Shown piece by piece: positions 12,176-52,750 of a DNA stretch of 53,872 nt. The stretch is from Patescibacteria group bacterium (GTDB lineage: Bacteria > Patescibacteriota > Minisyncoccia > Phycocordibacterales > JACZSL01): contig JACZSL010000003.1 in assembly GCA_022574205.1 (NCBI GenBank), positions 1-53,872 on the forward strand. The letters run 5' to 3'. The position numbers and the translations under genes are program-made. Position 1 is the first letter of the stretch. The number at the start of each line of letters is the position of its first letter. Under the pieces are notes generated by a model, which had not been told where the DNA came from, ran no database searches, and was given only the letters and a program-made list of their open reading frames with translations.

Positions 12176-12291
12176 CCCGTACGAAATAGGTCGCGGCAAA
12201 ACTATGTTGACCTATAATTAATTTTACTAAATCCGATATTGTGTATGTTACGAATTATATATACATATGCGACCCGCGATTTCGTACGGGA
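12175..12291 (-). mobile_element. Start-codon hairpin element at uvrB (no intact target duplication)
   Basis: Perfect 13-bp terminal IR tcccgtacgaaat/atttcgtacggga plus inner ggtcgc/gcgacc; terminal base is the A of the uvrB ATG. Confidence 0.65.
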
Positions 12292-12944: not shown

Positions 12945-13079
12945 CCCGATAGTTACCCGCCTGCCATCGCTACAAAGCACAGGGGGTTTGTATTATTGCT
13001 TATAAATAATGACTCAACCTTTACGTTCATAATTTCAATGATAATAGCTATAGCTTTGGCGGGCGGGTAACTATCGGGA
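12944..13079 (-). mobile_element. Start-codon hairpin element at the HAD gene
   Basis: About 23-bp terminal IR with one mismatch; TGGA duplicated on both sides (12940-12943, 13080-13083), each as ATGGA on the minus strand. Confidence 0.8.
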
Positions 13080-13696: not shown

Positions 13697-13822
13697 CCCG
13701 ATAGTGAGAAATTATGTTGTAATAAATTACGACTACTAATCAAACAAAGCGATCTCAACATGTTGATACATATACATACACCGCCCCCTGTGCCCCGCAC
13801 CACATAATTTTCTACTACGGGA
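13696..13822 (-). mobile_element. Start-codon hairpin element at the FKBP gene
   Basis: Imperfect ~23-bp terminal IR; TGAA duplication (13692-13695, 13823-13826); outer ATG lies 5 nt after the upstream gene's stop. Confidence 0.75.
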
Positions 13823-14458: not shown

Positions 14459-14496
14459 TTGAATTTTTTAATGTGGTGATTGGAATATATTTTTAA

Positions 14497-16927: not shown

Positions 16928-18007
16928 TTATATCCCCTCCTCTTTGAGCTCTTCGACGAGCATTTTCGCTTTCTTCGAGAGTTTTTGCGGGAGTTTGATC
17001 TTTAGCTTTATAAATAGATCCCCACGTCCCCCACCGCGTTTTGGAACACCCTTACCGCGAAGGCGGAGCATTTCTCCGGGTGAAGCACCTTCCGGAACTT
17101 TTACTTGGATTTCGCCGTCTAGTGTCGGTAGTGTGTATTCTTTACCTAATAGCGCGTCTGTGAGTTTTATATTAAGTGTTGTTGTAATGTTGGTACCTTC
17201 GCGCTTAAACCGAGGATCGTCCTCTACGTGGAGCTTTACATACAGATCACCTGGCACACCGCCTGAGAGTGCCTCTCCAGCACCGCTAAGACGAATCATT
17301 TCACCATTATGAATATTTTCTGGAACTGTAATACTAATCTCAACCTCCTGCCTCTTAATACCGATGCCGTGGCAGTCATTACATTTATCGTGCGGGACTT
17401 CCCCCTTTCCATGACATGAATCACACACGCGCATACTCGTGAAAGTCCCAAGAAGTGATCTTTTTGTCTCGTGAATATTTCCCTTGCCGTTGCATGTAGG
17501 GCAAGTGTCCATGCTTGAACCAGCTTTTGCACCCGTTCCTTTACACTTCTTGCATTCGGACACTTTCGTTATGAGTACTTTTCTCTTTGTACCAAAAACT
17601 GCTTCAGTAAACGGAAGCTCGAGATCAATAGAAATGTCACGACCTCGCTTTACACGTCGTGCACCGCCTCCACCATTGAAGAATTCAGTAAAAATGTCTC
17701 CGAGATCGAAATTCTGAAAATCTTGTGCGTTGAATCCAGAGCCTCCAAAATCAAACCCTTCAAAGCCGGCTCCTGGTGCGCCTGGCGCACCAGCACCATT
17801 AAACACCCTTCCGTAGGAATCGTATTCAGCGCGTCTTTTATCATCTGATAAGATGTTGTACGCTTCGCTTATTTCCTTAAACTTCGCGTCGTCGGTGTTT
17901 CCTTTATCTGGGTGGTGTTTGTGCGCAAGCTTGCGAAACGCTTTTTTTATATCGTCTTTAGTGGCATTACGTTCAATGCCGAGGATTGTGTAATAGTCTT
18001 TATTCAT
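16928..18007 (-). CDS. dnaJ: Chaperone DnaJ
   Basis: HPD J-domain, G/F region, four CxxCxGxG repeats. Confidence 0.97.
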   Translation of the reverse strand: MNKDYYTILGIERNATKDDIKKAFRKLAHKHHPDKGNTDDAKFKEISEAYNILSDDKRRAEYDSYGRVFNGAGAPGAPGAGFEGFDFGGSGFNAQDFQNFDLGDIFTEFFNGGGGARRVKRGRDISIDLELPFTEAVFGTKRKVLITKVSECKKCKGTGAKAGSSMDTCPTCNGKGNIHETKRSLLGTFTSMRVCDSCHGKGEVPHDKCNDCHGIGIKRQEVEISITVPENIHNGEMIRLSGAGEALSGGVPGDLYVKLHVEDDPRFKREGTNITTTLNIKLTDALLGKEYTLPTLDGEIQVKVPEGASPGEMLRLRGKGVPKRGGGRGDLFIKLKIKLPQKLSKKAKMLVEELKEEGI

Positions 18008-18159
18008 CCCGTTAGAGAATTATCCTTTCAATATATAAGTGTAGTAATATATTAATATTGTCATCTCTCCCTCTCCACATCATCCAATCTATCCGTAATT
18101 CCTAACGGGACTTGTCCCGTTTAAAAAATTAGCCGTCTCTTATACATCCCCGTGGCGGA
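18007..18159 (-). mobile_element. Composite start-codon hairpin element at dnaJ
   Basis: Inner arm pair tcccgttag..ctaacggga (18007-18110), extra CCCG/CGGG arms at 18106-18119 and 18147-18159; TGAA duplication (18003-18006, 18160-18163). Confidence 0.65.
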
Positions 18160-21407: not shown

Positions 21408-21457
21408 GTCTTAGATCTTGTTAATTATTCTGAGCGTAGCGAGAAATAATGTTATTA

Positions 21458-21586
21458 AATCTTAAACCCGCCGCAGTTTTTGAACATACACCAAAATACT
21501 GTGCTAGCATAGCACATGTGTTTTTCTCCCATAATGTATCTTTTTTCCTCATGGTGTTTGTTCAAAAATTTAGGCGGGTAAATTCG
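21458..21586 (-). repeat. 129-bp structured intergenic repeat, copy A (rplM-rpsI)
   Basis: Homologous to 23995-24123; long imperfect stem acccgcc..tttttgaaca / tgttcaaaaa..ggcgggt; adjacent 11-bp hairpin at 21592-21624. Confidence 0.85.
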
Positions 21587-21636
21587 CTTTTCTGTATTCT
21601 ACTTCGATTCCTCGTAGAATACAGGATCTCATTTAG

Positions 21637-23959: not shown

Positions 23960-23994
23960 GTTAGATTTTATTAGCGAGCAAGGCGAGATTAGAA

Positions 23995-24123
23995 AATCTT
24001 AAACCCGACAAAGTTTTTGAACACACACCAAAATGCTGTGTTAGCGTAACATGAGTGTTTTGTTCTTTCAATATGTTGTTCTCTGTCATAATGTTTGTTC
24101 AAAAATTTAGGCGGGTAAATTCG
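23995..24123 (-). repeat. 129-bp structured intergenic repeat, copy B (rpsK-rpsD)
   Basis: Same length as copy A, last 32 bp identical; adjacent 12-bp hairpin at 24129-24160. Confidence 0.85.
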
Positions 24124-24168
24124 TACTTCTAGATTTTGTTTTGTTCCTAACAAAATCTAGGTGTTTAT

Positions 24169-25166: not shown

Positions 25167-25278
25167 CCCGATAGTAATAGGACACGGACATTAATTATCC
25201 TTGCCATAAATTTAAACTTTTGTAATTGTTCGACTTTTTCTTCATATATCGTGTTAGTGTCCGTGATTACTATCGGGA
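25166..25278 (-). mobile_element. Start-codon hairpin element at rpmJ
   Basis: Terminal IR tcccgatagtaat/attactatcggga plus inner cacggacaytaa arms; TGAA duplication (25162-25165, 25279-25282); an extra decayed arm CTAATAGG-ATG precedes it. Confidence 0.8.
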
Positions 25279-27400: not shown

Positions 27401-28633
27401 CTATATGCCCAATTTACGCTTATAAAAAAGGATATCAAGAGCAAGAAATGGGTCAAGTGCCCATTCTCCCCCCAGCCATGTAATGTAGTTAGCAAGATAT
27501 GTACCATCGAGAACTGTTACTTCAAAATGTTGCATATCTGGCATAGTCTCTTGTTCTGATTGTGGTTCGATAATTTTTTTAAACCAACCGGAAAGGTCTT
27601 TATCTGCCAATAGTAAAAGCGTGTTAGGAAGGGGTCGTGTTTGGCGAATTTTATTCAGTGCTAAAGAGAAGGAACTAGTCCACTGTGCTCTAACGGATTC
27701 CATAATAGCAATAAAATCGCTTTCCTGTTTTTGGCTCATTTTCCCGCATAAATATAAATGCAGTAGTGAACGGGTTTCTTCGATAGGTACTTTAAGAACT
27801 TTAGAAATCTCACGGAAAACTAAATGTCGCCCTCCTGTAAACGAGGCCAAATGAACTAGCGTGCCACCATCAACAAGACTTATGTCACTCATCTCGGCAC
27901 TAATGTCCAAGAGTACAAAATCGTCGCTTTGCTCAAAAACATCCCTAGCCGCAAGAAATGATGCAAGTGGAAACGCATGAAAATCCACACTATCGTCAGG
28001 AAGTAATTCTCCTACAATTTCAGATGTTTGGTCGTGAATGTCACGTGAGATGGCGCTAAGTCCTAGATCAATTTTCAGCCTCTTTGTTGGTTTGTCGTAA
28101 GGGTTGCTCGTTTGGTAACCATTTAATGTTGTTCGAATTATCTCACAATCCACTGAAGCCAAGTCTCGATTCCTCGATTTAATAGGGGTGGTTTTGGTAT
28201 CTTCCCCAATAAATTTGGAAATCGCCTCTTTCACAAATCTTTCGGATATTTGCCTCGTCATAGTAAACGGTTCCTCCTTATTTATAGACAACCTTCTTAT
28301 CTCAACTGTAGCCCACGGACTTGAGAATGTGGTTAATACGTGATCTACGAGTTTACCCTTCAGGAAAATGCCTTCATTTTTCAATAGCTGTGTGGTAACA
28401 GATTGCACTTCGAACATAGTGTTCAGTAGTGTTGCAAGCATGGCTTTTGTTAACTTATCTAAACGTGGGGCTGTTTCATGGAAACTAATCGCGTTCCTCG
28501 TGCTGTAAAGAATCTTTGGAAGCTTTTTTGGCGAAAGTATGGCAAGAGCCGCTCCAACACTCCCGCTTCCAATGTCAAAAACAATGAGAGAACGTGTACC
28601 TGTATTCGTCTTTGAAGAAGCTTTGTTTTTCAT
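27401..28633 (-). CDS. Actin-like (FtsA/PilM-like) protein
   Basis: VFDIGSGSV and LLDISAEMSDI phosphate-loop-like motifs, GGRHL; start reassigned to MKNKA. Confidence 0.55.
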   Translation of the reverse strand: MKNKASSKTNTGTRSLIVFDIGSGSVGAALAILSPKKLPKILYSTRNAISFHETAPRLDKLTKAMLATLLNTMFEVQSVTTQLLKNEGIFLKGKLVDHVLTTFSSPWATVEIRRLSINKEEPFTMTRQISERFVKEAISKFIGEDTKTTPIKSRNRDLASVDCEIIRTTLNGYQTSNPYDKPTKRLKIDLGLSAISRDIHDQTSEIVGELLPDDSVDFHAFPLASFLAARDVFEQSDDFVLLDISAEMSDISLVDGGTLVHLASFTGGRHLVFREISKVLKVPIEETRSLLHLYLCGKMSQKQESDFIAIMESVRAQWTSSFSLALNKIRQTRPLPNTLLLLADKDLSGWFKKIIEPQSEQETMPDMQHFEVTVLDGTYLANYITWLGGEWALDPFLALDILFYKRKLGI

Positions 28634-28835
28634 CCCGTTAGAGATAGGAAACGCCAAATAACGAAGTTAAAATAGTGCTTCCTATTTTATTATTTTCTAA
28701 AAATCTTTTCATCGACCTAGGTGTTGTGCCTATTCCGGCGTTTCCGTAAGTTATTTTTTATCTTTATATACATTTACTTATTTTACTATTTTGTTAGTAA
28801 AGGTCATACATAACTATTAACTATCTCTAACGGGA
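28633..28835 (-). mobile_element. 203-bp start-codon hairpin element (twin 1)
   Basis: Perfect 15-bp TIR tcccgttagagatag; TGAA duplication; near-identical to 34198-34403. Confidence 0.9.
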
Positions 28836-28882
28836 TTCATACTACTTATTATATTTGAAGACTATTTTCCCGCAATGATTTT

Positions 28883-30688
28883 TTACTTAAGAACCGCTTT
28901 CACGCGTCTTACACCAGCGCTTGAAGCTTCTTCTTTCGTTATCTTAAATGTTCCTTTGATATCGCCAGTATTTTTCACATGAGGTCCACCACACAGCTCG
29001 CTCGAGTAGACGGTACCATCGGAGGATTTGACCATATAGACATTAACAGTGTCCGGATACCGCTCCCAAAAACTTCCCTCTACACCGCTCTCCATAGCCG
29101 TATTTTTGTCCATCTCCTCAATCACGACGTTACACTTATTCCTAATTACTTCATTAACATAGGCCTCCACTTTATCGAGCGTTCCTCGATCAACCTTCTC
29201 TCCATGAGTAAAGTCAAAACGTGTTCGCTCGGCTGTTATGTTTGAGCCGGCTTGGTGCACATGCTCACCAAGGTACTTTCGAAGTCCGGCAAGCATTAAA
29301 TGTGTGGCAGTATGAAGCATTGTAGTTTCTTCGCTCGCATCCGCTAAGCCTCCCTTAAACTTCTGCTCTGCTCCCGCTCGAGAGGTCTCTCTATGTAACT
29401 CCATTCTTCTATTAAAAGCATCTTCATCTATTCGCAAACCGCGTTCATCAGCTAATTCTTTAACAAGCTCAAAGGGAAATCCATAAGTAGTAACTAAATC
29501 AAAAACTACTTCCGAAGAAAGTTCTGAGTCTACGGTGCTTCTACCAACAGACATATTGTAGGTCCTCTCAAACTGTTTTATTCCACGATCAAGAGTCTTT
29601 CGGAATTTTTTTTCTTCTTCCTCAATTGTTCTCGATATCGTCATTACTTTGCTCCTTAAATATGGGTAATGTTTTTCATAGACGCTGACAATTACCTCGA
29701 TCAAAGAGTGTAGTCCTGAATCCTCTAATCCCAGTCTGTCCTTTGCGATAACTGCCCTTCTTATCAATCTTCTAACGATATATCCATGTTCAGTGTTGCT
29801 TGGCAATACACCCTCAGCGGTTATAAATACGGCACTACGAATATGATCTGCAATAATTCTAAAAGATTTTTGATTATCTGTGTAAGATTTTCCTGAAGTC
29901 TCTTCAAGTTTTTTTATCACTCCGGAAAATAAATCCGTGTCGAATATATTGTCTTTGCCCTGCATTACCATCGCAAGCCTCTCAAGTCCGGCTCCTGTGT
30001 CTACGTTTTGTTGTTTTAGTTTTCCGACGATTCGCCCGTCCTTTTTCTCGTACTCCATAAAAACATCATTCCATATTTCCACAACTTGCTGTTTCTCATC
30101 TGCTTTTTTAAATTCCTCTTTGCTTTTAAGATTCAGATTTCCTACAACATCATAAAACATTTCCGTGTCTGGTCCGCAGGGCCCATTGTCGCCCGGACTC
30201 CACCAATTATCTTTTTCACCAAGAAAATAAATTCTCTCTTTTGGAATACCCAAACTCTCCCAGATCTCAGCGCTTTTTTTATCTTTAGGAGCGTCATCAT
30301 TGCCCTCAAAACATGTTATATAAATACGAGCTTTATCAAGTCCTAATTCATCTATTAAAAATTCATAACTCCATTTGATCGCATCCTCCTTAAAATAATC
30401 TCCTAGGGACCAGTTACCCAGCATCTCAAAAAACGTGACGTGTATGTTGTCGCCAATTTCATCTATATCTTGTGTTCTAACGCACTTCTGAACACTGACC
30501 AATCTCTTACCCTTTGGATGCTCTTCACCTAAAAGATAAGGGGCCAACTGCTGCATTCCAGCCGTTGTAAATAAAACTGATTTATCTGTTTCACTCGGAA
30601 TGAGGGGCGCGCCTTGTATCAATTCGTGTTTGCGCCTAGGGTCGGTAAAAAAAGCTATAAACTTAGCTCTTATGTCGTCTGATTGCAT
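28883..30688 (-). CDS. alaS: Alanine--tRNA ligase, C-terminally truncated (no C-Ala domain)
   Basis: FTTAGMQ, TFFEMLGN, VDTGAGLERL, editing HTATH and ELCGGPHV; ends at 601 aa. Confidence 0.95.
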   Translation of the reverse strand: MQSDDIRAKFIAFFTDPRRKHELIQGAPLIPSETDKSVLFTTAGMQQLAPYLLGEEHPKGKRLVSVQKCVRTQDIDEIGDNIHVTFFEMLGNWSLGDYFKEDAIKWSYEFLIDELGLDKARIYITCFEGNDDAPKDKKSAEIWESLGIPKERIYFLGEKDNWWSPGDNGPCGPDTEMFYDVVGNLNLKSKEEFKKADEKQQVVEIWNDVFMEYEKKDGRIVGKLKQQNVDTGAGLERLAMVMQGKDNIFDTDLFSGVIKKLEETSGKSYTDNQKSFRIIADHIRSAVFITAEGVLPSNTEHGYIVRRLIRRAVIAKDRLGLEDSGLHSLIEVIVSVYEKHYPYLRSKVMTISRTIEEEEKKFRKTLDRGIKQFERTYNMSVGRSTVDSELSSEVVFDLVTTYGFPFELVKELADERGLRIDEDAFNRRMELHRETSRAGAEQKFKGGLADASEETTMLHTATHLMLAGLRKYLGEHVHQAGSNITAERTRFDFTHGEKVDRGTLDKVEAYVNEVIRNKCNVVIEEMDKNTAMESGVEGSFWERYPDTVNVYMVKSSDGTVYSSELCGGPHVKNTGDIKGTFKITKEEASSAGVRRVKAVLK

Positions 30689-30718
30689 TTATAAACAGTA
30701 CTATAGGTTGACTCTAGC

Positions 30719-30958
30719 TCAAAATAGAAAGTCGCTGTCAATGACAATTAGGATATAACCAAGAATGACGAGTAATATACCACTAATAACGTATCGCCTC
30801 TCCTTTCTCATTGCCTTGATCACATACATATCAATGTGTCTCTCGTGAATAATATGCGAATGCACATTCATGACCGTTATGGCAATTAATATCGTTCCCA
30901 ACGTCTCTGCTGTAATACCTAAAAAACCAAGACTTAATGCTGAAAGAAATTCAATCAT
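30719..30958 (-). CDS. Small hypothetical membrane protein
   Basis: 79 aa, 2-3 hydrophobic segments. Confidence 0.6.
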   Translation of the reverse strand: MIEFLSALSLGFLGITAETLGTILIAITVMNVHSHIIHERHIDMYVIKAMRKERRYVISGILLVILGYILIVIDSDFLF

Positions 30959-31031
30959 ATAATAGTACTAGTGTAACATCACTTTAAGGCAAACATAACG
31001 CTCACATGGTACTAATTCATATCAAATCCTA

Positions 31032-31066
31032 CCACTTTGATCGAGATCGGATCTCGATCAAAGTGG
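31032..31066. repeat. Perfect 17-bp inverted repeat containing four GATC
   Basis: ccactttgatcgagatc-g-gatctcgatcaaagtgg. Confidence 0.85.
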
Positions 31067-31107
31067 AAAATTTTCCTTATACTTTCCCCATATACCAATA
31101 CTTATAC

Positions 31108-31371
31108 TTATACTTTATATCTCTCTTTTTCAAGAAGTGCTCGCTTCTTGTTAACGCCGCCATTGTAACCGCCAAGTTTGCCAGTAGAGCAGATAACGCG
31201 ATGACACGGAATTTTAGGATCGTGGTTTTTACTCATTATCATACCTACTGCACGCGCGGCAGCTGGGTTCCCAGCACGCCGCGCAACCTCAGTGTAGCTT
31301 AAGACTTCGCCCATCGGAATATCAGAGACAACCTCCGACACACGAGTTTTAAAAGAGCGTTCCTGTTTCAT
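31108..31371 (-). CDS. Methylated-DNA--protein-cysteine methyltransferase (MGMT DNA-binding domain only)
   Basis: IPMGEVLSYTEVA...AARAVG...IPCHRVI...GGY; start MKQER overlaps the nuclease 3' end by 23 nt. Confidence 0.88.
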   Translation of the reverse strand: MKQERSFKTRVSEVVSDIPMGEVLSYTEVARRAGNPAAARAVGMIMSKNHDPKIPCHRVICSTGKLGGYNGGVNKKRALLEKERYKV

Positions 31372-32200
31372 TCTTTGATACTTTTTTAGATTTGGCTGTG
31401 ACTTTTTCTGCACTCCCTCTTGCTTTTGGAGTATTATTTTCTTGATGTTTCTTCAAAAGTTTTTTCCCAACGAATTCACGATATGTGCAGTAGTCACAAT
31501 CTTTGCCCACGGGAGGAATCTTCTCACTTTCTAACGTCTCTTTTATACTAGCGAGTGTCCCATCTATCCAGCCGTCGTCCCCAACGTAAGCAATCAAGGT
31601 CAGAACAAATTCAAGTTTTCCATCAAACATTTTTTTGTCTCTACCGGCATTTGCATATACGAAGTAACCGGTGTTTGAGACTTTGAAACCTTTCTGTCGC
31701 AACAGCCATTGATACACTTCCATCTGCCGTTTGTAACCTTGGTGCCAATCTTTATCAAGCGTTTCGATCTTCTCGTTTTTGCTGGTTGCCTTGTAGTCAA
31801 CAACAATAATCTCGCCATCGGGGTTCACCCACACATCATCGACTGCGCCGGAAACCGTAAACCCAGTCGGCTCGTGTAACACCCGTACACCCTTAAAGTT
31901 CTCACGCCAAACGTCGAGATCTTTATGTACAAAAGGAATGGCATCTACGCCATACTGCTCCATTAACGGATGTGGTTTACCTTTAGCGCGATAAATATCA
32001 AACTCTTTTTTGAGGAGCGTGTCGACAGCACTATTTAGATTAAATGGAAACCCTGGTGGGCGTGCTGTCCCAAGTTTATTATCTACATAAAAGCATCTGG
32101 GACACGAAACGAATAAATCGATTTTGGAGCGGGAAAGACGCCAGCGTGTTCCTCCATAATTCCAGTCCTTGCTTCGGTCTGGTCTATAAAACTGACTCAT
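31349..32200 (-). CDS. PD-(D/E)XK nuclease family protein (RecB/Cas4-like)
   Basis: LSRSKIDLF..CPRC, GAVDD..VVDYKAT, QMEVY, CDYC. Confidence 0.85.
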   Translation of the reverse strand: MSQFYRPDRSKDWNYGGTRWRLSRSKIDLFVSCPRCFYVDNKLGTARPPGFPFNLNSAVDTLLKKEFDIYRAKGKPHPLMEQYGVDAIPFVHKDLDVWRENFKGVRVLHEPTGFTVSGAVDDVWVNPDGEIIVVDYKATSKNEKIETLDKDWHQGYKRQMEVYQWLLRQKGFKVSNTGYFVYANAGRDKKMFDGKLEFVLTLIAYVGDDGWIDGTLASIKETLESEKIPPVGKDCDYCTYREFVGKKLLKKHQENNTPKARGSAEKVTAKSKKVSKNETGTLF

Positions 32201-32231
32201 GAGAGAAAGTATAGCATGGCTATCTGCCCAG

Positions 32232-32732
32232 CTAGTCCCTGTCGTTTACGACAGCCTCCACTTTCGTATCGTCTTCTTCGTAGTATTTAAGTGATTTAAT
32301 CTTTTGTTCAATAGCCCAAAGGATGGTGAAGACGAGCAATGTCAAAAGTGTCGTAAATATCGCAACTGCATAAAGTCTGAAGCCAACTGCCATACCGATT
32401 CCTGCCGCAACCCAAAGGCTTGCTGCTGTTGTAAGTCCACTTACCCTTGATCCTCGAAATATAATCATGCCGGCACCCAGAAAACCTACCCCTGTTACAA
32501 TACCGCCTGCGACACGAAGGGGGTCAAAATTTAACAGTGGTAGATATACTCCTGTTGCAATAGTGGATGTAATGATAAAGAGTGCGGAGCCTAAAGATAC
32601 AAGCGCATACGTTCGCATACCAGCAGTCTTTCCAGCAATAGATCGTTCAGTGCCAAGAAGCATCCCTAAAAATACAGCTAACACGAGCTGCGAAAAGAGT
32701 GTTACAAGATCTGGATTCACTAATAAATCCAT
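32232..32732 (-). CDS. MgtC/SapB family membrane protein
   Basis: AGMRTYALV, RVAGGIVTGVGFLGAG, GLTTAASLW. Confidence 0.92.
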   Translation of the reverse strand: MDLLVNPDLVTLFSQLVLAVFLGMLLGTERSIAGKTAGMRTYALVSLGSALFIITSTIATGVYLPLLNFDPLRVAGGIVTGVGFLGAGMIIFRGSRVSGLTTAASLWVAAGIGMAVGFRLYAVAIFTTLLTLLVFTILWAIEQKIKSLKYYEEDDTKVEAVVNDRD

Positions 32733-32794
32733 TCAATTAGAAAATTATCCTTTTAATATATAACTAACAATGTGTCCATTAATCTTACAGCAGA

Positions 32795-33304
32795 CTACTG
32801 TGTCTTTCGATCAATTTGCACCGCCATAAACACACCCTCGATAAACCCTCCAAGAGAGTCCTGTAATGGACTGTCATCCCCTAAATTAAACTCTTTATCT
32901 CCGTTGTCATTATATAGAAGTGCGTGGTACGTCTGATTTATTTCGGTGTTCCTCAAAAGTTTTACATATACCTTTTCGCTAACACCAGCATTGAGCCTGT
33001 GTGCGCCAAGTGCATTTCCTAAGACACCATTTACTTCTTCGTGTATAACCACCCACCCATCCTTCTCTATAGACACTGTGTCAATCAATACTCTATCACC
33101 AGACAATTGGTCCGAAATAGCAACGTTGTTATTTTCGGACACAAGTGCGCTATTGCCGCCGGAGCCAGTCATGTTGTCGTCTCCGCCACCACCGTTCAAT
33201 GAGGGAACCCTGTCTCCAATGAGAAACATGATACCAATACCAATTATGAATCCTGCAATAAATGAACCGATTACTTTACTGTTGACTGCTTTGTCTTCAT
33301 CCAT
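32795..33304 (-). CDS. Membrane-anchored surface protein with an Ig-like GWVVIH domain
   Basis: N-terminal TM, Gly-rich linker, DGWVVIHEE...LG motif. Confidence 0.65.
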   Translation of the reverse strand: MDEDKAVNSKVIGSFIAGFIIGIGIMFLIGDRVPSLNGGGGDDNMTGSGGNSALVSENNNVAISDQLSGDRVLIDTVSIEKDGWVVIHEEVNGVLGNALGAHRLNAGVSEKVYVKLLRNTEINQTYHALLYNDNGDKEFNLGDDSPLQDSLGGFIEGVFMAVQIDRKTQ

Positions 33305-33340
33305 ATTCTTTCGTTTCCCTCAGTTATGGCTTATATACAC

Positions 33341-34198
33341 CTATTCTATACGATGATCGCCGGTACACAAGGCTTGACTTTCTGCAATAACCGTGGCTAT
33401 TTTCGCAGGCGCAACACCAGCTTTTTGTAGCGCGGCGGCGTCTTCGCCCAAGTCACGGCATAGCACAATTTTCTGTTCAAGGAGATTCTTCTTTTCCCTA
33501 TCTGACAGCGTTGAAAGACACGTTATAGGATAGATGCGAGTCTGTGTAATGAGGTCGTATAGGCCACGCTTGTTGGGATAGAACCAACTTAGAAGTTTTA
33601 AATCAACGCACTTAGCATACGAAATGGAACTTTTTGTAAATTTAGTATTGGTTATCAACCAAGCTTCACGGACCATGTCCCCTTCTTCCAAGTTTTCTTG
33701 TTTGTGAATATCGAGAAAACGAGCATGCACATAGAGCGCAACTTTTAAGTCCGTTTTAATACCTAGATTGTTGTGAAATTTAATCTCGGCGGAAATTCTT
33801 GTATTGTCCTTCTCCGCAACAAGATCTACTTCGTGGGTTGCACACTTTCCCTGAATCACTTGTTGGATACGCGTGCTATAACCTAATGCGTTAAAAACTT
33901 CTGCAACGTAATTTTCAAACGGGAATCCACTTGGACCAAGAGCGAAAACTCCGCGACGAATTGAGTACCGTGCAGCGACAGTTTTCTCCTTACTTTTTCT
34001 CAGTAGCGAAAAAGCATGTCTGTAGATCTCGCTCGTAGTCATGCCATCCTCAATTTCAGCATTAACGTGATTAACAATTTCCTTGATCAATTTTTGAGAT
34101 GTACCGGTTTTTTTGAGGGACCGCTCAAGTTTACTCTGTAAGAATAATTCTTTCTCGCCATTGGCTTTTATGACATAAATTTCTCGATATTCCTTCAT
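33341..34198 (-). CDS. ATP-cone + Mrr-like restriction endonuclease domain protein
   Basis: VIKANGEKELFLQSKLERSL (ATP-cone), GFPFENYVAE, HEVDLVA...AEIKF; start reassigned to MKEYR. Confidence 0.8.
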   Translation of the reverse strand: MKEYREIYVIKANGEKELFLQSKLERSLKKTGTSQKLIKEIVNHVNAEIEDGMTTSEIYRHAFSLLRKSKEKTVAARYSIRRGVFALGPSGFPFENYVAEVFNALGYSTRIQQVIQGKCATHEVDLVAEKDNTRISAEIKFHNNLGIKTDLKVALYVHARFLDIHKQENLEEGDMVREAWLITNTKFTKSSISYAKCVDLKLLSWFYPNKRGLYDLITQTRIYPITCLSTLSDREKKNLLEQKIVLCRDLGEDAAALQKAGVAPAKIATVIAESQALCTGDHRIE

Positions 34199-34403
34199 CC
34201 CGTTAGAGATAGGAAACGCCAAATAACGAAGTTGAAATGGTGCTTCCTGGTTTATTATTTTCTAAAAATCTTGTCATCGACCTAAAAATGCTGTGCTTAT
34301 TCTGGCGTTTCCGTAGGTTATTTTTTATCTTTGTATACATTTACCCATTCTACTTATTTTGCTCGTTGAGGTCATACATAACTATTAACTATCTCTAACG
34401 GGA
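34198..34403 (-). mobile_element. 206-bp start-codon hairpin element (twin 2)
   Basis: Same TIR and TGAA duplication as 28633-28835; first 38 and last 40 nt (flanks included) identical. Confidence 0.9.
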
Positions 34404-34510
34404 TTCATTATTTCGTACAGTTTTAAATATGGTTTTAAATCTAGATTTAAATGTAAATTTAAAACTATATTTAATTATATGACAGGAATGGGTCTAAACG
34501 AAATAAGTTC

Positions 34511-39071: not shown

Positions 39072-41909
39072 TCAAATGACTATGTTTATAAGCTTTTTTG
39101 GAACATAGATTAATCTTTTTGGTTTCTTGCTATTAGTCCACTTCAAAATATTTGGAATGAGGAGCGCCTTCTCGAGCGCCTGCTCCTTGGTCAACCCACC
39201 CTCACCCTCAAACTCTCCCCTAAGTTTTCCATTAACCTGAACAGCCACAGTGTATGTATTCTCATTTATTTTACTCGCGTCATAACTGGGCCACGGTGCT
39301 TTATGAATCGACTCTCCTTCTCCGATATTTTCCCAGAGTTCTTCTGTAATGTGGGGGGCAAACGGAGCGAGTAATTGAAGAAATGTTCTGTATGCGCCCC
39401 TCGACACGCGCCCCTCTTTTTCGATTTCATTTATAAAGATCATAAGAGAAGAAACTGCGGTATTGAATTTCATCGCTTCAACATCTTCGCTAACTTTTTT
39501 TATAGTCTTATGTAATAGAGCGTCTATGGACTCCACGTCTCTCTTGTCGTCGACAATATCCATTACCCTCCACACTCGATCGAGAAACCTTCGTGAGCCA
39601 ACCATGTTGTCAGTGCTCCAGCTGATCGCCTGCTCAAATGGTCCCATAAACATTTCGTAGACACGTAGTGTGTCTGCACCGACGTTGTCTATGACTTCGT
39701 CTGGATTTACTACATTCCCCTTTGATTTGCTCATTTTTCCCCCTCCTTCGGCGAGAATTAGTCCATGTGATGTTCGTTTTTTGTATGGCTCGCTGGAGGA
39801 TACCAACTTCTGATCATATAAAAACTTGTGCCAAAAGCGGGAATAAAGCAGGTGGAGTGTTGTGTGCTCCATCCCGCCGTTGTACCAATCAACCGGCATC
39901 CATTCTTTTAGCAACTTCTTATTTGCAAACTCCTTAGCGTTTGTTGGATCAGCATATCGAAGGAAGTACCAACTCGAGCCGGCCCAGTTTGGCATGGTGT
40001 CTGTCTCGCGACGAGCGCGCCCTCCACACTTCGGACATTTAACATTAACGAAGTCCGAAATGTTTGCTAAGGGTGACTCGCCGCTGTCAGTCGGCTCGTA
40101 TTTTTCAACTTCTGGAAGTTCGACTGGAAGTTGGTCTTCCGGCACAGGTACCCAACCGTCGACTTTGCAGTGGATCATTGGTATCGGCTCACCCCAATAC
40201 CTCTGGCGCGAGAAGACCCAATCACGAAGTTTGTAGGTTGTAACCATCTTCCCGCCAACCTTTTTTATGATCTTTTCCTTAGCCCCCTCTGACTCCATTC
40301 CATCAAATTTGCCAGAGTTCATTAAAAAACCAGTCCCGATTAGCGCTTCCTCATTTTGCAAAATGTGCCAAACTTGCCTCTGGTGATATGGGGTTAGTCT
40401 GTTCAAAATCTCTTTTTTATCTACCCACGTTAGTGTATGAAGAGACTGTTCATGCTCGTTAATCTTACCTTGGGAGATTAGATCGTCGACTTCTGCCATA
40501 AATGCGTGGACAATAGCACAGCGATTCTGTTTTTTGTGGGATGCACAATATTTGGCGGCTGTAATCCAACGTGATCTGCTAACAATTTTGGCATTTGGAA
40601 TAGCTGCCTCCTCCTCTATTTCGGTAAGTGCAGCTTCTTCGGGTGTTTGTCTTTTTTCAATTCCTCCCATAATTGCGGTGGTAATACCTTCTAATGATCC
40701 GTGCCAGTCAAGTAATGCAAATTTACCAGTTGATTTATTACGCAAGTGCACAATAATCATGTCGCGTGACACCTCGTCAAATCTTTCCTGAGGTGGATTT
40801 GTGACATCCTCTGCACATGTAACTAAAACTTGGCGTATTTCAAGATTGTACTTTTTTGCAAAAGCAAAGTCGCGCTCATCGTGAGCGGGGACGGCCATAA
40901 TCGCTCCCGTTCCATAGTGGGCCATTACATAGTCCGCAATGTAAATAGGAATCTCTTCATTGTTTGCCGGATTAATAGCTTTCACTCCCTTAAGTTCCAC
41001 CCCCGTCTTTCCTTTAGTGTCGTCAGTCCTTTCGATCTCACTCCTCTTCGCCGATACTTCGATATATCGCAGTACTTCGTCGAGGTTTGTAATTGAGTCT
41101 TTAAGTTCTTTAACTAAGGAGTGCTCCGGTGCAAGAACCATGTAGGTTGCTCCAAACAAAGTGTCGGGACGAGTTGTGAATGTTTTAATTTCTTTGTCAC
41201 TACCCTTTATTTTAAAAGTTATCTCCGCCCCCTCACTTTTACCAATCCAGTTGCGCTGTCCTACTTTTATAGCTTCTGTATAGTCGAGCTCCTCCAGATC
41301 ATCATGGAGGCGGTCAGCGTACTTTGTGATCGAAAGCATCCACTGTTCCTTTTCTCGCATATCTATCTCGCCACCACAGCGCTCGCATTTACCGTCAATA
41401 ACCTCTTCATTTGCTAGGCCAATCTTACACGTTAAGCACCAGTTTATAGACATCTTAGCCTTATATGCCAAACCTTTTTTATAGAGCTGTAAAAAAATCC
41501 ACTGTGTCCATTTGTAATAAGTTGGATCAGTGGTATTAATCTCGCGCGACCAATCAAAAGAGATGCCGATAGATTTTATCTGCGCCCTGAATTTGTCTGT
41601 ATTGTTTTTTGTTACATCCTTCGGATGCGTGCCGGTTTTTATCGCATAGTTTTCTGTTGGCAGTCCAAAAGCATCCCACCCAATCGGGAATAGTACATTT
41701 TTACCCTCTGCGCGTCGTTTGCGCGCAACGATATCCATCGCCGTATATGGCCTGGCGTGACCGACGTGTAAACCGTCACCAGAAGGATACGGAAATTCTA
41801 CAAGAATATATTCTTTGTCGCTCTTTTTGTCGTCCGCTTTATATAACTCTTTCTTTTCCCAAACATCCTGCCACTTTCTTTCTATGCGCTTGTGGTCATA
41901 CTTTTTCAT
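39072..41909 (-). CDS. leuS: Leucine--tRNA ligase with an inserted Nudix-like domain
   Basis: HVGH, editing-domain TTRPDT and GTGAIMAVPAHD, KMSKS; ATG overlaps the upstream TGA. Confidence 0.97.
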   Translation of the reverse strand: MKKYDHKRIERKWQDVWEKKELYKADDKKSDKEYILVEFPYPSGDGLHVGHARPYTAMDIVARKRRAEGKNVLFPIGWDAFGLPTENYAIKTGTHPKDVTKNNTDKFRAQIKSIGISFDWSREINTTDPTYYKWTQWIFLQLYKKGLAYKAKMSINWCLTCKIGLANEEVIDGKCERCGGEIDMREKEQWMLSITKYADRLHDDLEELDYTEAIKVGQRNWIGKSEGAEITFKIKGSDKEIKTFTTRPDTLFGATYMVLAPEHSLVKELKDSITNLDEVLRYIEVSAKRSEIERTDDTKGKTGVELKGVKAINPANNEEIPIYIADYVMAHYGTGAIMAVPAHDERDFAFAKKYNLEIRQVLVTCAEDVTNPPQERFDEVSRDMIIVHLRNKSTGKFALLDWHGSLEGITTAIMGGIEKRQTPEEAALTEIEEEAAIPNAKIVSRSRWITAAKYCASHKKQNRCAIVHAFMAEVDDLISQGKINEHEQSLHTLTWVDKKEILNRLTPYHQRQVWHILQNEEALIGTGFLMNSGKFDGMESEGAKEKIIKKVGGKMVTTYKLRDWVFSRQRYWGEPIPMIHCKVDGWVPVPEDQLPVELPEVEKYEPTDSGESPLANISDFVNVKCPKCGGRARRETDTMPNWAGSSWYFLRYADPTNAKEFANKKLLKEWMPVDWYNGGMEHTTLHLLYSRFWHKFLYDQKLVSSSEPYKKRTSHGLILAEGGGKMSKSKGNVVNPDEVIDNVGADTLRVYEMFMGPFEQAISWSTDNMVGSRRFLDRVWRVMDIVDDKRDVESIDALLHKTIKKVSEDVEAMKFNTAVSSLMIFINEIEKEGRVSRGAYRTFLQLLAPFAPHITEELWENIGEGESIHKAPWPSYDASKINENTYTVAVQVNGKLRGEFEGEGGLTKEQALEKALLIPNILKWTNSKKPKRLIYVPKKLINIVI
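40350..40820 (-). other. Nudix-like domain inserted in LeuRS (boundaries approximate)
   Basis: GGIEKRQTPEEAALTEIEEEAAI aligns to GX5EX7REUXEEXGU. Confidence 0.75.
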
Positions 41910-42853
41910 CACCTGATTCGACTTGGTATCTCTTTACGTGGTGGAAATCGATCAGGGTCAATAGTTCTTTCAAAACATGTTTCACCTTCGGAGTGCGCCC
42001 AGCTGGTCCCTTCCGTACTGAACTGTGGATATCGTAAGCTTTCACTCTTACCACTACTTTCAAGATTAAACTCTGCGCATAGTGCAAACGATCGCGCGCC
42101 AGTGACACGATAAGTGTAAGCCTCTCTGGTCTCAGGGTCATTTGGCGCAACGTATCCGGTAATGGAATCTTCAAGGTCGGTTAAAGTTTTTGGTAAGACT
42201 TCTTTGCTTTGCCAGTGATCCACAATCTGCCATTGTATGTTTTGAAGGTCAGACACTCTTTCTCTATCGATTCGAAGCTCGCGTTGGCTCGCTGGGGAGC
42301 CTGTGATGAAGAAGCCGCCCACTATAGAAATAAATACCACTAGAGCAACGGCAATACTCACGCTACGTGCAGCTTTTGGGTTACCGGCCCAGCGACCCTT
42401 AAGGTCATAAAAGTAATAACTAAAACCTCCCCCTATAACAACAAAGATTGAGAGTACTTTAAGAATAAATCGTGTCGTTAAATCTCCACCAAGAAATGTA
42501 TTAACGAGCACTATAAGGTCTATTGCAACGGTTGCCCCTCCAATAAAAAGTGTCAAATATATAAGCCATCGTCTTATGCCAAGATCGCTTTTGCGCGAAT
42601 CTCTCCTTATCTCCCTGTTTACATAGCGTGATAGATAAATGAAGAGTGGAAAAACTATGATGAGAGCCGCCATCGATGAGCGGATAGCACCAGAAAAGGG
42701 ATCAACGAAACTATTTAAAGTGCTTGGAAATAGAAGGTTGATATATTGAAACCACAGCACAAGGAGACTAACTGCACTTATGTACAGCGTTATCATTACA
42801 CCCACATAAAGGAAGAAGTCCTTTGGGGTCATTTTCACTTTTGTTTCTACCAT
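41909..42853 (-). CDS. Multi-TM protein (DUF5671-like) with a pilin-like C-terminal domain
   Basis: PKDFFLY...WLIYLTLF TM block; DRERVSDLQNI...LP...DPET...YTY...LCAEF tail. Confidence 0.7.
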   Translation of the reverse strand: MVETKVKMTPKDFFLYVGVMITLYISAVSLLVLWFQYINLLFPSTLNSFVDPFSGAIRSSMAALIIVFPLFIYLSRYVNREIRRDSRKSDLGIRRWLIYLTLFIGGATVAIDLIVLVNTFLGGDLTTRFILKVLSIFVVIGGGFSYYFYDLKGRWAGNPKAARSVSIAVALVVFISIVGGFFITGSPASQRELRIDRERVSDLQNIQWQIVDHWQSKEVLPKTLTDLEDSITGYVAPNDPETREAYTYRVTGARSFALCAEFNLESSGKSESLRYPQFSTEGTSWAHSEGETCFERTIDPDRFPPRKEIPSRIR

Positions 42854-42917: not shown

Positions 42918-42938
42918 TTAAATCTTAAATTCAACAAC
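42918..42938 (-). repeat. Displaced duplicate of the ychF 3' end
   Basis: GTT GTT GAA TTT AAG ATT TAA (VVEFKI*) versus the gene's GTC ATC GAG TTT AAA ATC TAA (VIEFKI*). Confidence 0.7.
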
Positions 42939-42959
42939 CCCGAACCAAAGCGGAGCTTG
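42938..42959. repeat. REP-like palindrome copy 1 (truncated)
   Basis: ccccgaaccaaagcggagcttg is the reverse complement of part of 44244-44273. Confidence 0.75.
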
Positions 42960-43068: not shown

Positions 43069-43115
43069 CGGCGAACCTGAACCAAGGCGGAGCTTGGTAC
43101 GGGCAGGCGTCGCCG
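43069..43115. repeat. REP-like palindrome copy 2 inside a hairpin abutting the ychF stop
   Basis: cggcga..cctg-aaccaaggcggagcttggtacggg-cagg..tcgccg. Confidence 0.75.
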
Positions 43116-44230: not shown

Positions 44231-44282
44231 TTACCAACACCTGCCCCGTACCAAGCTCCGCTTTGGTTCGGGGTTTGGTAAG
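44231..44282. repeat. REP-like palindrome copy 3 upstream of ychF
   Basis: Core ccccgtaccaagctccgctttggttcgggg (44244-44273) nested in ttaccaa/ttggtaa. Confidence 0.8.

Positions 44283-51821: not shown

Positions 51822-52750
<929 letters not shown>

Follow-up and report, generated by a model that had tools for sequence, protein, structure and literature searches.

Elements with some of the features that we describe here are known from several systems. The Correia elements of Neisseria (CREE/NEMIS) are, like the present elements, non-coding, 100-200 bp in length, bounded by TIRs and flanked by a short target duplication; they are also numerous, adjoin gene starts and form hairpins in transcripts shared with adjacent genes. 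However, the duplication made by Correia elements is TA, their placement with respect to the start codon is not fixed and no coding partner is known for them, while the present elements have a 275-bp GIY-YIG partner cassette, insert at the start codon itself and keep a fixed orientation. IS200/IS605 and their PATE/REP derivatives share with them subterminal hairpins, a 4-5-nt adjoining site, a fixed orientation and miniature derivatives, and no smaller insertion sequences are known. Their transposase is of the HUH Y1 type, though, and they lack TIRs and target duplications, unlike the present elements, with their perfect TIRs and flanking repeats that change along with the site. In the phage T4 seg genes and I-TevI (free-standing GIY-YIG homing genes), the selfish insertion, located between or at host genes, likewise contains no gene other than that for a GIY-YIG nuclease. 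These enzymes exceed 200 aa, have separate DNA-binding domains, belong to the UvrC-like branch and have one cognate site with no TIRs or target duplication, in contrast to the 86-aa, Slx1/UPF0213-like protein described below, which sits at hundreds of different genes. Rickettsia palindromic elements are selfish palindromic DNA that persists because it is read through along with host coding sequence; they insert inside ORFs and add peptide segments, whereas the present elements lie at the start codon and do not form part of the mature host protein. The stand-alone Slx1-like/UPF0213 (YhbQ-type) proteins have the same fold, motifs and minimal single-domain size, but the present gene is bounded by TIRs and duplications, multi-copy and polymorphic. 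In a 2006 survey, the Slx1-like/UPF0213 branch was mostly vertically inherited, and the selfish GIY-YIG members were of the UvrC-like lineage (PMC1564403).

We observed seven elements in the window (the whole 53.9-kb stretch of DNA that was analysed), each at a start codon (A, B and E1-E5; Table 1). Their density, ~130/Mb, equals the highest reported for MITEs, 123/Mb (PMC11602168). The window contains 262 ATGRA pentamers, 12 of them at gene starts and 28 intergenic but not at starts; all seven elements are at gene starts (hypergeometric p ~4e-5, calculated from these counts). A preliminary description had reported two ~205-bp copies at unrelated genes 5.5 kb apart, with 85-90% identity, perfect 15-bp TIRs and an inner stem, and we recovered all of these features. 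A and B are spaced by 5565 nt, have the same orientation relative to the downstream gene, and agree in 182 of 204 columns of a global alignment (89.2%; 90.5% once the 3 gap columns are excluded), with the substitutions concentrated mid-element, as had been claimed. The TIRs are perfect over 14 bp (15 bp if the flanking T/A is counted). The terminal 38 and 40 nt had been described as invariant; the ends were indeed identical, but over 35 and 34 nt within the element; when the flanking repeats are included, the runs reach 40 nt at both ends. On the + strand, both copies are preceded by TTCAT and succeeded by ATTCAT. The 14-mer TIR occurs exactly four times in the window, and 12 times with up to 3 mismatches (in comparison to 3.2 +/- 1.7 in shuffles), which is not expected by chance.

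Table 1. Positions of the elements, their parts and their host genes in the window.
Feature	Position	Strand	Sequence	Description
Copy A	28634-28834	-		non-autonomous, 201 nt; remnant of a GIY-YIG cassette (decayed, with internal deletion); immediately 5' of ATG of gene 27401-28633
Gene-proximal TIR of A	28634-28647		CCCGTTAGAGATAG on +	in the full-length form encodes C-terminus ..LSLTG and stop codon
Gene-distal TIR of A	28821-28834		CTATCTCTAACGGG on +	gene sense CCC GTT AGA GAT = PVRD, in frame after duplicated ATG AAT
Proximal target-site duplication of A	28629-28633		TTCAT = ATGAA	real start codon of gene 27401-28633
Distal target-site duplication of A	28836-28840		TTCAT = ATGAA	original start position; now pseudo-start of 7-codon ORF MNPVRDS*
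Extra base beside A	28835		A	one additional base
-10 box	28848-28853	-	TATAAT	7 nt upstream of distal ATG; original leaderless-type promoter of A's host gene
Inner stem of A	28647-28745	-	GGAAACGCC / GGCGTTTCC	arms 28647-28655 / 28737-28745
Host gene of A	27401-28633	-		410 aa; no Pfam family; ATG abuts element
Copy B	34199-34402	-		204-nt non-autonomous element; directly 5' of ATG of gene 33341-34198
Proximal repeat of B	34194-34198		TTCAT	real start codon of gene 33341-34198
Distal repeat of B	34404-34408		TTCAT	pseudo-start ATGAAT; extra A at 34403
Inner stem of B	34212-34312	-	GGAAACGCC / GGCGTTTCC	arms 34212-34220 / 34304-34312
Host gene of B	33341-34198	-		285 aa; ATP-cone + Mrr_cat + AF1548-like C-terminal domain
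E1	12176-12290	-	TIR CCCGTACGAAAT..	115 nt; directly 5' of uvrB
E2	12945-13078	-	TIR CCCGATAGTTACCCGCC..	134 nt; directly 5' of HAD-hydrolase gene; ATGGA duplicated
E3	18008-18109	-	TIR CCCGTTAGAGAATTA / CCCGTTAGGAATTA	102 nt; directly 5' of dnaJ; distal repeat decayed
E4	25167-25277	-	TIR CCCGATAGTAAT..	111 nt; directly 5' of rpmJ; ATGAA duplicated
E5	13697-13821	-		125 nt; directly 5' of FKBP-type PPIase gene; ATGAA duplicated

A longer version with an ORF, of the kind envisaged in the preliminary description, was found. This ~275-bp form has as its sole ORF an intact 86-aa GIY-YIG nuclease of the Slx1/UPF0213 branch (Pfam PF01541, E=1e-17; PDB 1zg2 (UPF0213), E=2e-8). The ORF opens at the duplicated host ATG, so that translation of the distal TIR gives ..PVRD.. 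and with it an N-terminal extension, MNPVRD; the proximal TIR encodes ..LSLTG, and the TGA stop codon shares bases with the host ATG (..CGGGATGA). The AlphaFold model of the protein (pLDDT 88.9) has 1zg2 and Slx1 as its best folds (TM ~0.6), with I-TevI and UvrC as only distant matches. The residues encoded by the distal TIR lie outside the folded domain (pLDDT ~55 for residues 1-10). Among the matches listed, 16 of the 24 long-form ORFs were intact, with a median pairwise dN/dS of 0.18, and at the level of sequence the ORF is under purifying selection. Related proteins form 4228 clusters with lengths of 85-86 or 93-95 aa; the 93-95-aa proteins begin with M[N/S/T]PVRD, and nearly all end in RFLSLTG. 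A and B align collinearly with the long form at ~60% identity, with remnant protein matches, although ~73 nt have been deleted and the frame destroyed. As internally deleted pseudogenes collinear with the long form, they are MITE-like derivatives of it. The inner stem of A is homologous to two codon stretches of the GIY-YIG gene, RKRF and KRF.

The 18-mer terminus was present at >120 loci in GTDB genomes, mostly of Patescibacteria. This count is a lower bound, and the family figures given here are drawn from among the matches listed. Element sizes were bimodal, with 77 elements of 100-135 nt and 26 of 250-290 nt and none between 300 and 1700 nt, corresponding to a non-coding class of ~115 nt and a GIY-YIG-coding class of ~275 nt. 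An ATG was abutted by 78 of 99 complete elements, and 74 of these 78 ATGs begin ORFs that reach 60 aa or more. The orientation had been thought to be fixed, and in these other genomes the hairpin end was gene-proximal in 78 cases and distal in 3; this agrees with the direction of the GIY-YIG ORF, which starts from a borrowed host start codon and terminates on it as well. The orientation may be set by the insertion mechanism or by selection for a coupling arm. The termini were conserved across phyla while the interiors varied, consistent with the earlier suggestion that the ends are under constraint. In Omnitrophota, the copies lie between the SD and the ATG.

The claim that the element moves as a unit was supported by empty sites. 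In a metagenome contig (run X4), 28633 was joined to 28843, with the element and precisely one TTCAT missing; the 6 nt that remain at the junction match the flank variant seen in run X2. A related species (L122, 86% AlaRS identity) also lacks exactly the element and one copy of the 5-nt repeat and reads TATAATaagtaaatagtATGAAAAAC, where the window has TATAATaagtagtATGAAT, the element and then ATGAAAAAC; the TATAAT -10 box is conserved at this element-free site. Sister elements were likewise present or absent among close strains. Over 17.8 kb, the window and GCA_022565145.1 (L121) are 99.5% identical, with E4 as the sole gap; E1 was absent in the strains of runs X2 and X5, and E2 is probably absent in the X5 strain. 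The insertion carries a 5-nt flanking duplication (ATGAA in the gene sense) and one extra T, which may also be parsed as 4 nt with symmetric T...A ends; in a few copies the repeat is 1 nt shorter. A and B are placed exactly between a duplicated original start codon and the functional one, co-oriented with the host gene. E1 and E3 lack the distal ATG.

Together, these results make it likely that A and B belong, as non-autonomous MITE-like copies, to a family of very small mobile elements, the full form of which is a GIY-YIG cassette. We lean slightly towards a mechanism in which the GIY-YIG protein, acting in trans for A and B, would cut the element ends and the target. As its relatives are structure-specific nucleases, it may recognise the TIR cruciform or hairpin together with the conserved subterminal hairpin. 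To our knowledge, no GIY-YIG hydrolase has been shown biochemically or genetically to perform or trigger transposition, and we found no description of a start-codon GIY-YIG mobile element in the searchable literature.

The combination of TIRs and a short (4-5-bp) target duplication classically marks the DDE transposases of IS elements. A and B could therefore be ordinary MITEs moved in trans by such an enzyme encoded elsewhere, with the GIY-YIG gene a cargo or selfish passenger sharing their ends. This would also fit the finding that neither the 54-kb window nor the 17.8-kb L121 has an intact GIY-YIG cassette although insertions there are recent, so that the trans-acting source of the E4 and A events is unseen. 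However, the window has no transposase or integrase either, and among the matches listed the 118 TIR-bounded units fall into two size classes only, none transposase-sized. In each of the 24 long copies (among the matches listed), the TIRs also belong to the nuclease ORF, the distal TIR is conserved even though its residues lie outside the folded domain, and the ORF itself is under selection. We consider a DDE enzyme unlikely.

A homing-like spread appears to us quite improbable as well. GIY-YIG enzymes include homing endonucleases, and such a nuclease could break ATGAA-type gene starts, with repair copying an existing element and ATGAA microhomology priming both sides; the apparent duplication would then be required homology. 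Among the matches listed, 68 elements were flanked by repeats of 4 nt or more, TTCAT in 47 of them, and a few copies had mismatched repeats (e.g. TTCAT/GTCAT and TTCAT/TCCAT), which speaks for such spread. Yet the repeats covary (TTCAT/TTCAT, CTCAT/CTCAT, TCCAT/TCCAT and ATCAGT/ATCAGT), and one subfamily in one genome has different but internally matching repeats (CTCAT/CTCAT at L004 and TTCAT/TTCAT at L059), as expected for a true target duplication. Unrelated repeats, ATCAGT and GTAAAC, also occur, and Pfam and the AlphaFold model gave no DNA-binding domain beyond the 86-aa core.

The elements have a strong predicted RNA structure, with the entire element enclosed by the TIR stem (z of -6.1 in A and -4.0 in B). 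Hairpin stem positions 6-8 show fully compensated changes, and on the gene-sense strand G:T mildly exceeds A:C (11 vs 4). Since they also precede housekeeping genes, they might be a vertically inherited host leader, a structured 5' RNA controlling translation that is not mobile. This is contradicted by the empty sites, both between 99.5%-identical strains and across species, and is very improbable. The downstream genes are moreover unrelated (uvrB, dnaJ, rpmJ, PPIase and others), flanking duplications are present, the element has no Rfam family, and it derives from a protein-coding gene. A segmental duplication or assembly artefact, suggested by the repeat itself and by the breaking of short-read assemblies at these repeats, has a negligible probability and is refuted, since A and B have unrelated flanks (identities of 18% and 32% over 95 nt), independent Logan contigs from four metagenomes span every one of the four junctions, and both copies sit at the same sites in the independent NCBI MAG (GCA_022565145.1).

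Hosts would appear to tolerate these insertions, probably because their translation starts without a Shine-Dalgarno sequence, often on leaderless mRNAs. SD-like motifs preceded 3 of 31 genes, and a -10 box at spacer 6 preceded 7 of 31 (~0.6 expected). In a subgroup of Parcubacteria, the anti-SD motif is missing (PMC9297842). The elements had no significant internal promoter or terminator, and lay inside transcript-library contigs (RNA as assembled contigs only, with no 5' ends). The full-length element would be expressed from the host promoter and start codon, and ribosomes would be passed to the host gene via the ATGA overlap. In the non-coding copies, the upstream short ORF (6-42 codons) usually stops far from the host ATG and its frame is not conserved in short elements, so stop-start coupling cannot be the general mechanism for them. 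In two frames, the proximal TIR would supply a stop codon no more than 7 nt from the host ATG; the third frame would stay open. In phage T4 genes 25 and 38, a stem loops out RNA and brings the initiation signals beside the start codon (hairpin-bridged ribosome-binding sites), and in the MS2 coat/replicase pair upstream translation unmasks a start codon by long-range coupling. By analogy, these offer a possible logic for host-gene expression across the element. The TIRs may pair in the mRNA, loop out the element and bring the original 5' AUG beside the real one, and ribosomes that translate the short ORF, starting at the distal AUG, may cross the 5' arm and unmask the real start; we regard this combined scheme as evenly balanced.

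We infer both that the nuclease moves A and B and that the hairpin or coupling has kept their host genes expressed. The family occurs in many ultra-small bacteria (CPR/Patescibacteria), where its insertions would hijack host start codons; its full form, ~275 bp long, carries one gene, for an 86-residue nuclease.

We observed that copies A and B, the two near-identical repeats, share the same build. On the + strand both start with CCCGTTAGAGATAG and finish with CTATCTCTAACGGG, with TTCAT before and ATTCAT after, and their terminal inverted repeats (TIRs) of 14-15 bp are perfect. The alignment was identical at 182 of 204 columns (89%), which bears out the preliminary description of two near-identical copies with perfect TIRs. 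It had also described invariant ends of 38 and 40 nt and changes concentrated in the middle. The ends are indeed invariant and the substitutions central, but the identical stretches within the element are the first 35 and the last 34 nt. The TIR 14-mer had 12 matches in the window at up to 3 mismatches, as against 3.2 expected.

Two objections had been raised beforehand: that the similarity might run on into the flanking genes, and that one copy might be a mis-assembly. The 95 nt on each side showed identities of 18% and 32%, so the similarity ends at the element boundaries, and a segmental duplication is refuted, the flanking DNA being unrelated. All four junctions were covered by contigs from four independent metagenomes, and the independent MAG GCA_022565145.1 carried A and B at the same sites; these observations refute a mis-assembly.

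In gene sense, both copies are laid out as ATGAAT, then the element running from CCCGTTAGAGAT to ATCTCTAACGGG, then ATGAA. The second, gene-side ATG is the true start of the host gene, and the frame from the distal ATG (away from the host gene) reaches a stop after 7 codons. Nearly all genes in the window lie on the minus strand. A mechanical ORF scan extended the two host genes (27401-28657 and 33341-34222) by 8 codons of element from a TTG (LAFPISNG-M..).

Elements, related repeats and other features located in the window
Feature	Position	Length	Nature	Neighbouring gene or context
Copy A	28634-28834 (+ strand coordinates)	201 nt	non-autonomous element	host gene of a 410-aa protein, family unknown
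Copy B	34199-34402 (+ strand coordinates)	204 nt	non-autonomous element	host gene of an ATP-cone/Mrr-like protein
E1	12176-12290		sister element	abuts true start of uvrB
E2	12945-13078		sister element	abuts true start of HAD hydrolase gene
E5	13697-13821		sister element	abuts true start of FKBP-type PPIase gene
E3	18008-18109		sister element	abuts true start of dnaJ
E4	25167-25277		sister element	abuts true start of rpmJ
Remnant	32733-32763	31 nt	like gene-proximal end of E3	adjoins ATG of MgtC-family gene
Second palindromic family, first copy	21452-21598			intergenic, ribosomal-protein/rpoA region
Second palindromic family, second copy	23989-24135 (block 23960-24168)			intergenic, ribosomal-protein/rpoA region
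Short hairpins	42936-42959, 43076-43103, 44245-44275	~28-30 nt	3 copies of CCCCGAACCAAAGCGGAGCTTGGTACGGGG	flank ychF-type GTPase gene
Palindrome	34407-34481		A/T-rich	just upstream of B
ATP synthase alpha/beta-family ORF	51917-52747	276 aa		peroxiredoxin gene next
Leucyl-tRNA synthetase	39072-41912	946 aa	NUDIX-like segment at residues 413-507	

Five further elements of this build (E1-E5) were present in the window. Their TIRs are related but different (CCCG[A/T]TAG.., CCCGTACG..), the variants of E1-E5 being CCCGTACGAAAT, CCCGATAGTTACC, CCCGTAGTAG/CCCGATAGTG, CCCGTTAGAGAATTA and CCCGATAGTAAT. The products of rpmJ (MKVKASVKR) and dnaJ (MNKDYYTILG) have their expected N-termini. All seven elements in the window stand at gene starts, and six of the eight genes that start with ATGAA are occupied. 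The pentamer ATGRA occurs 262 times in the window, 12 times at gene starts and 28 times in intergenic DNA away from starts. From these counts, the hypergeometric probability of finding all seven at gene starts is ~4e-5, and the pentamer by itself does not account for the choice of start sites. A restriction to transcription start sites was weakened, since no more than 19 of 62 distal ATGs follow a -10 box at the spacing of leaderless transcripts, and E1 and E4 occupy operon-internal positions.

The remnant listed in the table has its CCCG end mutated to TCAA. It belongs to a 37-nt repeat (32727-32763) with 84% identity to 18002-18038, and other contigs match this piece alone (loose ends at 32730 and 32762).

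That the element moves as a unit, as had been proposed, was established from empty sites. A contig of metagenome run X4 passes from 28633 straight to 28843, lacking copy A and one TTCAT; the 6 letters between the two sides match a flank variant of run X2. In a related species (86% identity in AlaRS), the orthologous site reads TATAATaagtaaatagtATGAAAAAC, while in the window it consists of TATAATaagtagtATGAAT, the 201 nt and ATGAAAAAC. This fixes the boundaries of A: ATGAA was duplicated and one T was added. Over 17.8 kb, GCA_022565145.1 matches the window at 99.5% identity, and the single gap is at E4 and the ATGAAT before rpmJ, which the MAG lacks. The strains of runs X2 and X5 lack E1, and the one of run X5 probably also lacks E2. 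This presence and absence between strains, with E4 varying at 99.5% identity, upholds the earlier suggestion of relatively recent copying. In marine-sediment metagenomes many contigs agree with A and B at the element ends before diverging into other sequence, which indicates that further copies exist. A 26-mer of the A/B type gave no further copies in the JGI metagenome contigs, and an 18-mer had no exact match in IMG/VR, so carriage by phage is unsupported. Exact-sequence look-ups of the window proteins returned no record. We are confident that both copies are mobile and non-autonomous and belong to a family, which is widespread and currently active. The rival reading of the elements as vertically inherited regulatory leaders is contradicted by the empty sites.

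We also scanned the GTDB species genomes with the pattern CCCGTTAGAGATAG[G/T][A/T]AA and obtained at least 120 loci. Nearly all of the matches listed came from Patescibacteria (Paceibacteria-type groups and MAGs labelled Saccharibacteria), along with some from Omnitrophota and Planctomycetota; a few are due to chance. Both ends were found for 99 elements among the matches listed, of which 78 abut an ATG, and for 74 of these 78 the ATG begins a reading frame of 60 aa or more. Direct repeats of 4 nt or longer flank 68 of the listed elements and are mostly TTCAT, with other matched pairs being CTCAT/CTCAT, TCCAT/TCCAT, ATCAGT/ATCAGT and GTAAAC/GTAAAC. Within one subfamily of a single genome, the repeats were CTCAT at locus L004 and TTCAT at L059, so they are true target duplications. 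The scan was anchored on the hairpin-bearing end and could detect either orientation; among the matches listed this end was gene-side in 78 and on the far side in 3, in agreement with the fixed orientation relative to the gene noted from A and B. Tandem arrays joined by ATTCAT were seen at L004, L051, L087, L103 and L107.

In the phyla that use Shine-Dalgarno (SD) sequences, the element was not at ATGAA. In 13 of 21 cases it was co-oriented and preceded a start by at most ~60 nt, with the script requiring at least 60 codons; L091, judged by eye outside this count, is a further case in which the ATG opens a shorter ORF. In Omnitrophota and relatives (L008, L064, L068, L072, L062, L091) the element separates the SD from the ATG or lies immediately before the SD, L008 and L072 being one insertion in two species.

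The preliminary description had called for a longer version with an ORF, and such a form was found. Element lengths among the matches listed were bimodal, at 100-135 nt (77 elements) and 250-290 nt (26 elements), with no TIR-bounded units at 300-1700 nt. The long class, of ~275 bp and with the same TIRs, encodes in gene sense a protein of 85-86 aa (e.g. MFYTYVLQS..WYTGYTNDLRKRFNQHN..GPYKLIYYEAC..ARSRE.YLK.GMGKRYLKNRLKRFLSLTG). It matched the Pfam GIY-YIG profile PF01541 at 1e-17 and 64.4 bits (cut-off 22.6), and its closest solved relative by sequence was UPF0213 BH0048 (1zg2, 2e-8). The predicted model (pLDDT 88.9) had 1zg2 and Slx1 (7cq2/7cq3, 4xm5/4xlg, 6seh) as its nearest folds, with a TM of ~0.6 and rmsd from 2.2 Å, while I-TevI and UvrC were at E>1. 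By profile comparison and predicted fold, the putative product is a member of the GIY-YIG superfamily, in the Slx1/UPF0213 branch. Residues Y12, Y14, Y25, G27, R33, R35 and H39 were invariant in 30 proteins and E59 was kept in at least 90%; by analogy, catalytic roles may be assigned to the GIY Tyr, YIG Tyr-x-Gly, Arg and Glu positions. The ORF was intact in 16 of 24 copies, with a median pairwise dN/dS of 0.18.

In most copies, the frame extends 5' across the distal TIR as far as the duplicated host ATG, so that the protein begins M-N/S/T-P-V-R-D. The proximal TIR, near the host gene, codes for ..L-S-L-T-G, and the stop is the TGA of CGGGATGA, which overlaps the host ATG; at L041, in the SD-using phyla, the stop is supplied by a flanking GTAA rather than ATGA. 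The distal TIR is conserved although in the predicted model its encoded residues lie outside the folded domain, which suggests that the DNA sequence itself is constrained. A protein search returned 4228 clusters of 85-86 aa, or of 93-95 aa where the gene caller took the borrowed ATG. They were annotated as 'GIY-YIG nuclease family protein', 'putative endonuclease' or, wrongly, 'excinuclease ABC subunit C'. One AlaRS of a relative (P0123, 689 aa, 65% identical to that of the window) carries an in-frame GIY-YIG domain near its C-terminal part (..DTYYVYVILCNDDSMYIDQTNDLQKRWREH..); related cassettes thus land within coding sequence too.

Copies A and B are collinear with the long elements at ~60% identity. 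The ORF-start region survives in both, as does the ..YTG.T..LRKR.. stretch; ~73 nt are missing from the 3' half, and no frame is open. Since both carry identical deletions, decay came first and the copying followed, with the element then a non-coding unit. The inner stem of A and B, GGAAACGCC/GGCGTTTCC, is the counterpart of the gene's two RKRF/KRF codon stretches, and in the ~115-nt class the DNA between these stretches has shrunk to a loop of 3-5 nt. Stem positions 6-8 of the hairpin showed fully compensated changes (position 6, C-G in 25 and T-A in 43; position 7, G-C in 34 and C-G in 16), with a mild excess of G:T over A:C on the gene-sense strand. The lengths of the short elements showed no 3-nt periodicity and upstream ORFs end anywhere, and on this ground stop/start coupling was rejected as a general rule for the short copies.

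A and B are shorter than ~500 bp without a functional ORF, and have TIRs, a TTCAT duplication and empty orthologous sites; in these features they behave as MITEs. The ~275-bp form with the same TIRs has an intact ORF, whose GIY-YIG product is not a known transposase type. No DDE, HUH or serine/tyrosine recombinase ORF was found between the element ends, where the GIY-YIG ORF is the only one, no TIR-bounded unit among the matches listed exceeds 290 bp, and the window holds no transposase gene; the family therefore fits no insertion-sequence family. We consider it somewhat better than an even chance that the putative GIY-YIG nuclease is the mobilising enzyme. Mobilisation by a DDE transposase supplied in trans appears improbable, as no such gene shares the ends among the matches listed and none is present in the window. 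Homing-like copying through ATGAA microhomology is also less likely, given that the flanking repeats are site-specific and covary. Free-standing GIY-YIG homing endonucleases have extra DNA-binding domain(s) and one cognate site, whereas this protein is a single domain of 86 aa from the Slx1 branch and the insertions are at many unrelated genes; the family is thus not a homing endonuclease gene of a known kind. IS200/IS605 elements and PATEs have no TIRs, no target duplication and a HUH transposase, in contrast to the perfect TIRs and covarying repeats seen here. A model of that type, with the right ATTCAT inside the element and no duplication, was rejected since the repeats covary by site (L004 and L059). 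A group I intron, riboswitch or other known RNA family was likewise rejected: Rfam gave no gathering-score match across the window and none at E<0.8 for copy A, and a 5-nt duplication is present.

A 2006 survey of GIY-YIG proteins found the prokaryotic Slx1-like branch to be mostly vertical and traced selfish members to a UvrC-like lineage (PMC1564403). A large MITE survey makes no mention of Patescibacteria or start codons (PMC11602168). In the openly searchable literature, no GIY-YIG element with TIRs and no start-codon-specific insertions were found described, and this element type appears undescribed there. We tentatively propose, at slightly under an even chance, that the family is a prokaryotic transposable element of a type not previously classified, and at ~275 bp perhaps the smallest that is self-sufficient. 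Its sole protein would be an 86-aa Slx1-like GIY-YIG protein, its TIRs would lie within its own frame, and it would make a 4-5-bp duplication. It would be a start-site parasite using the host promoter and ATG with hand-back at ATGA, and its non-coding derivatives would have taken up much of the stock of ATGAA starts in SD-independent CPR bacteria, six of the eight in the window.

As suggested by its structure-specific Slx1 relatives, the nuclease would act at the junction of a cruciform or hairpin made by the TIRs and the subterminal hairpin; the exact loss of the element with one repeat fits resolution at the base of the stem. The full-length element would rely on the promoter and start codon of the host gene for its expression, and the ATGA overlap would return ribosomes to the host gene. 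In the predicted mRNA fold, the TIR arms pair in a stem that encloses the entire element (z = -6.1 for A and -4.0 for B). This stem would bring the original 5' AUG to its foot, beside the real AUG, and a short ORF beginning at the distal AUG and at least 6 codons long (MNPVRD) would traverse the 5' arm and open the stem. One frame of the proximal TIR would stop at a TAA 7 nt before the ATG, one at the overlapping TGA, and the third would be open into the host ORF, so that, as we propose, incoming translation is never lost. We regard this loop-out and coupling model of host expression as evenly balanced.

The hosts would tolerate the element by not depending on SD pairing. In the window, an SD-like motif precedes only 3 of 31 genes, and a -10 box peak lies 6 nt before the ATG in 7 of 31, as expected for leaderless mRNAs. 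A TATAAT-like box stands 6-7 nt before the ATG at many SD-less gene starts (e.g. 32200, 51814, 50280, 15459, 2865), a spacing that suggests leaderless mRNAs, and operon-internal genes have A-rich, SD-less upstream sequence. The anti-SD motif is absent in a subgroup of Parcubacteria (PMC9297842). Hexamers like the -10 box showed no positional enrichment upstream of the hairpin, which speaks against a fixed internal promoter; promoter-like matches in copy A were at chance level, and no terminator was found on either of its strands.

Other repeats were also seen in the window. The second, unrelated palindromic family has copies that are 77% identical, with ends ..AAACCCGCC..TTTTTGAACA / TGTTCAAAAA..GGCGGGTAAA. 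In three transcript-library runs, a related strain has AATC in place of the whole 209-nt rpsK-rpsD spacer, and in these contigs a similar piece lies before rpsK instead. At L110, two composite elements of 168-169 nt contain an inner palindromic module (..CCTGCCCGCC..GGCGATGGCAGGCGGGTA..) that resembles the inner arms of E2 and the ends of this second family, which suggests nesting or recombination between families. The short hairpins start with CCCG and end with CGGG, and may be minimal relatives of the element or an unrelated terminator-like repeat. For the palindrome upstream of B, contigs from two runs match 34434-34476 only and then continue into other sequence; the 25-nt motif ATTTAAAACTATATTTAATTATATG is also present at 14479, 15355 and 29856, a further short repeat family. 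The ATP synthase alpha/beta-family ORF, with its profile match reaching position 127 of 213, may be truncated or split. The NUDIX-like segment of the leucyl-tRNA synthetase scored 26.7 bits, above the Pfam cut-off.

If the nuclease does mobilise these elements, it would be a new enzyme class beside the DDE, HUH, serine/tyrosine recombinase and Cas1-type enzymes, and autonomous mobile elements would prove possible at a smaller size than known so far. A small nuclease recognising defined hairpin or cruciform ends may also find use as a tool. Gene callers make host genes too long by including element sequence (in the window from TTG starts, 'LAFPISNG'), and automatic annotation likely misplaces such starts; with the mislabelled cassettes, this affects statistics of start codons and protein lengths in CPR. 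The insertions are natural perturbations of start sites, bearing on how start codons are selected without SD pairing in CPR/Patescibacteria. Even uvrB, dnaJ and rpmJ tolerate an element on the start codon. The family shows a new way of life for selfish DNA in very compact genomes, sitting on the start codon, where it would borrow host signals and pass translation on.
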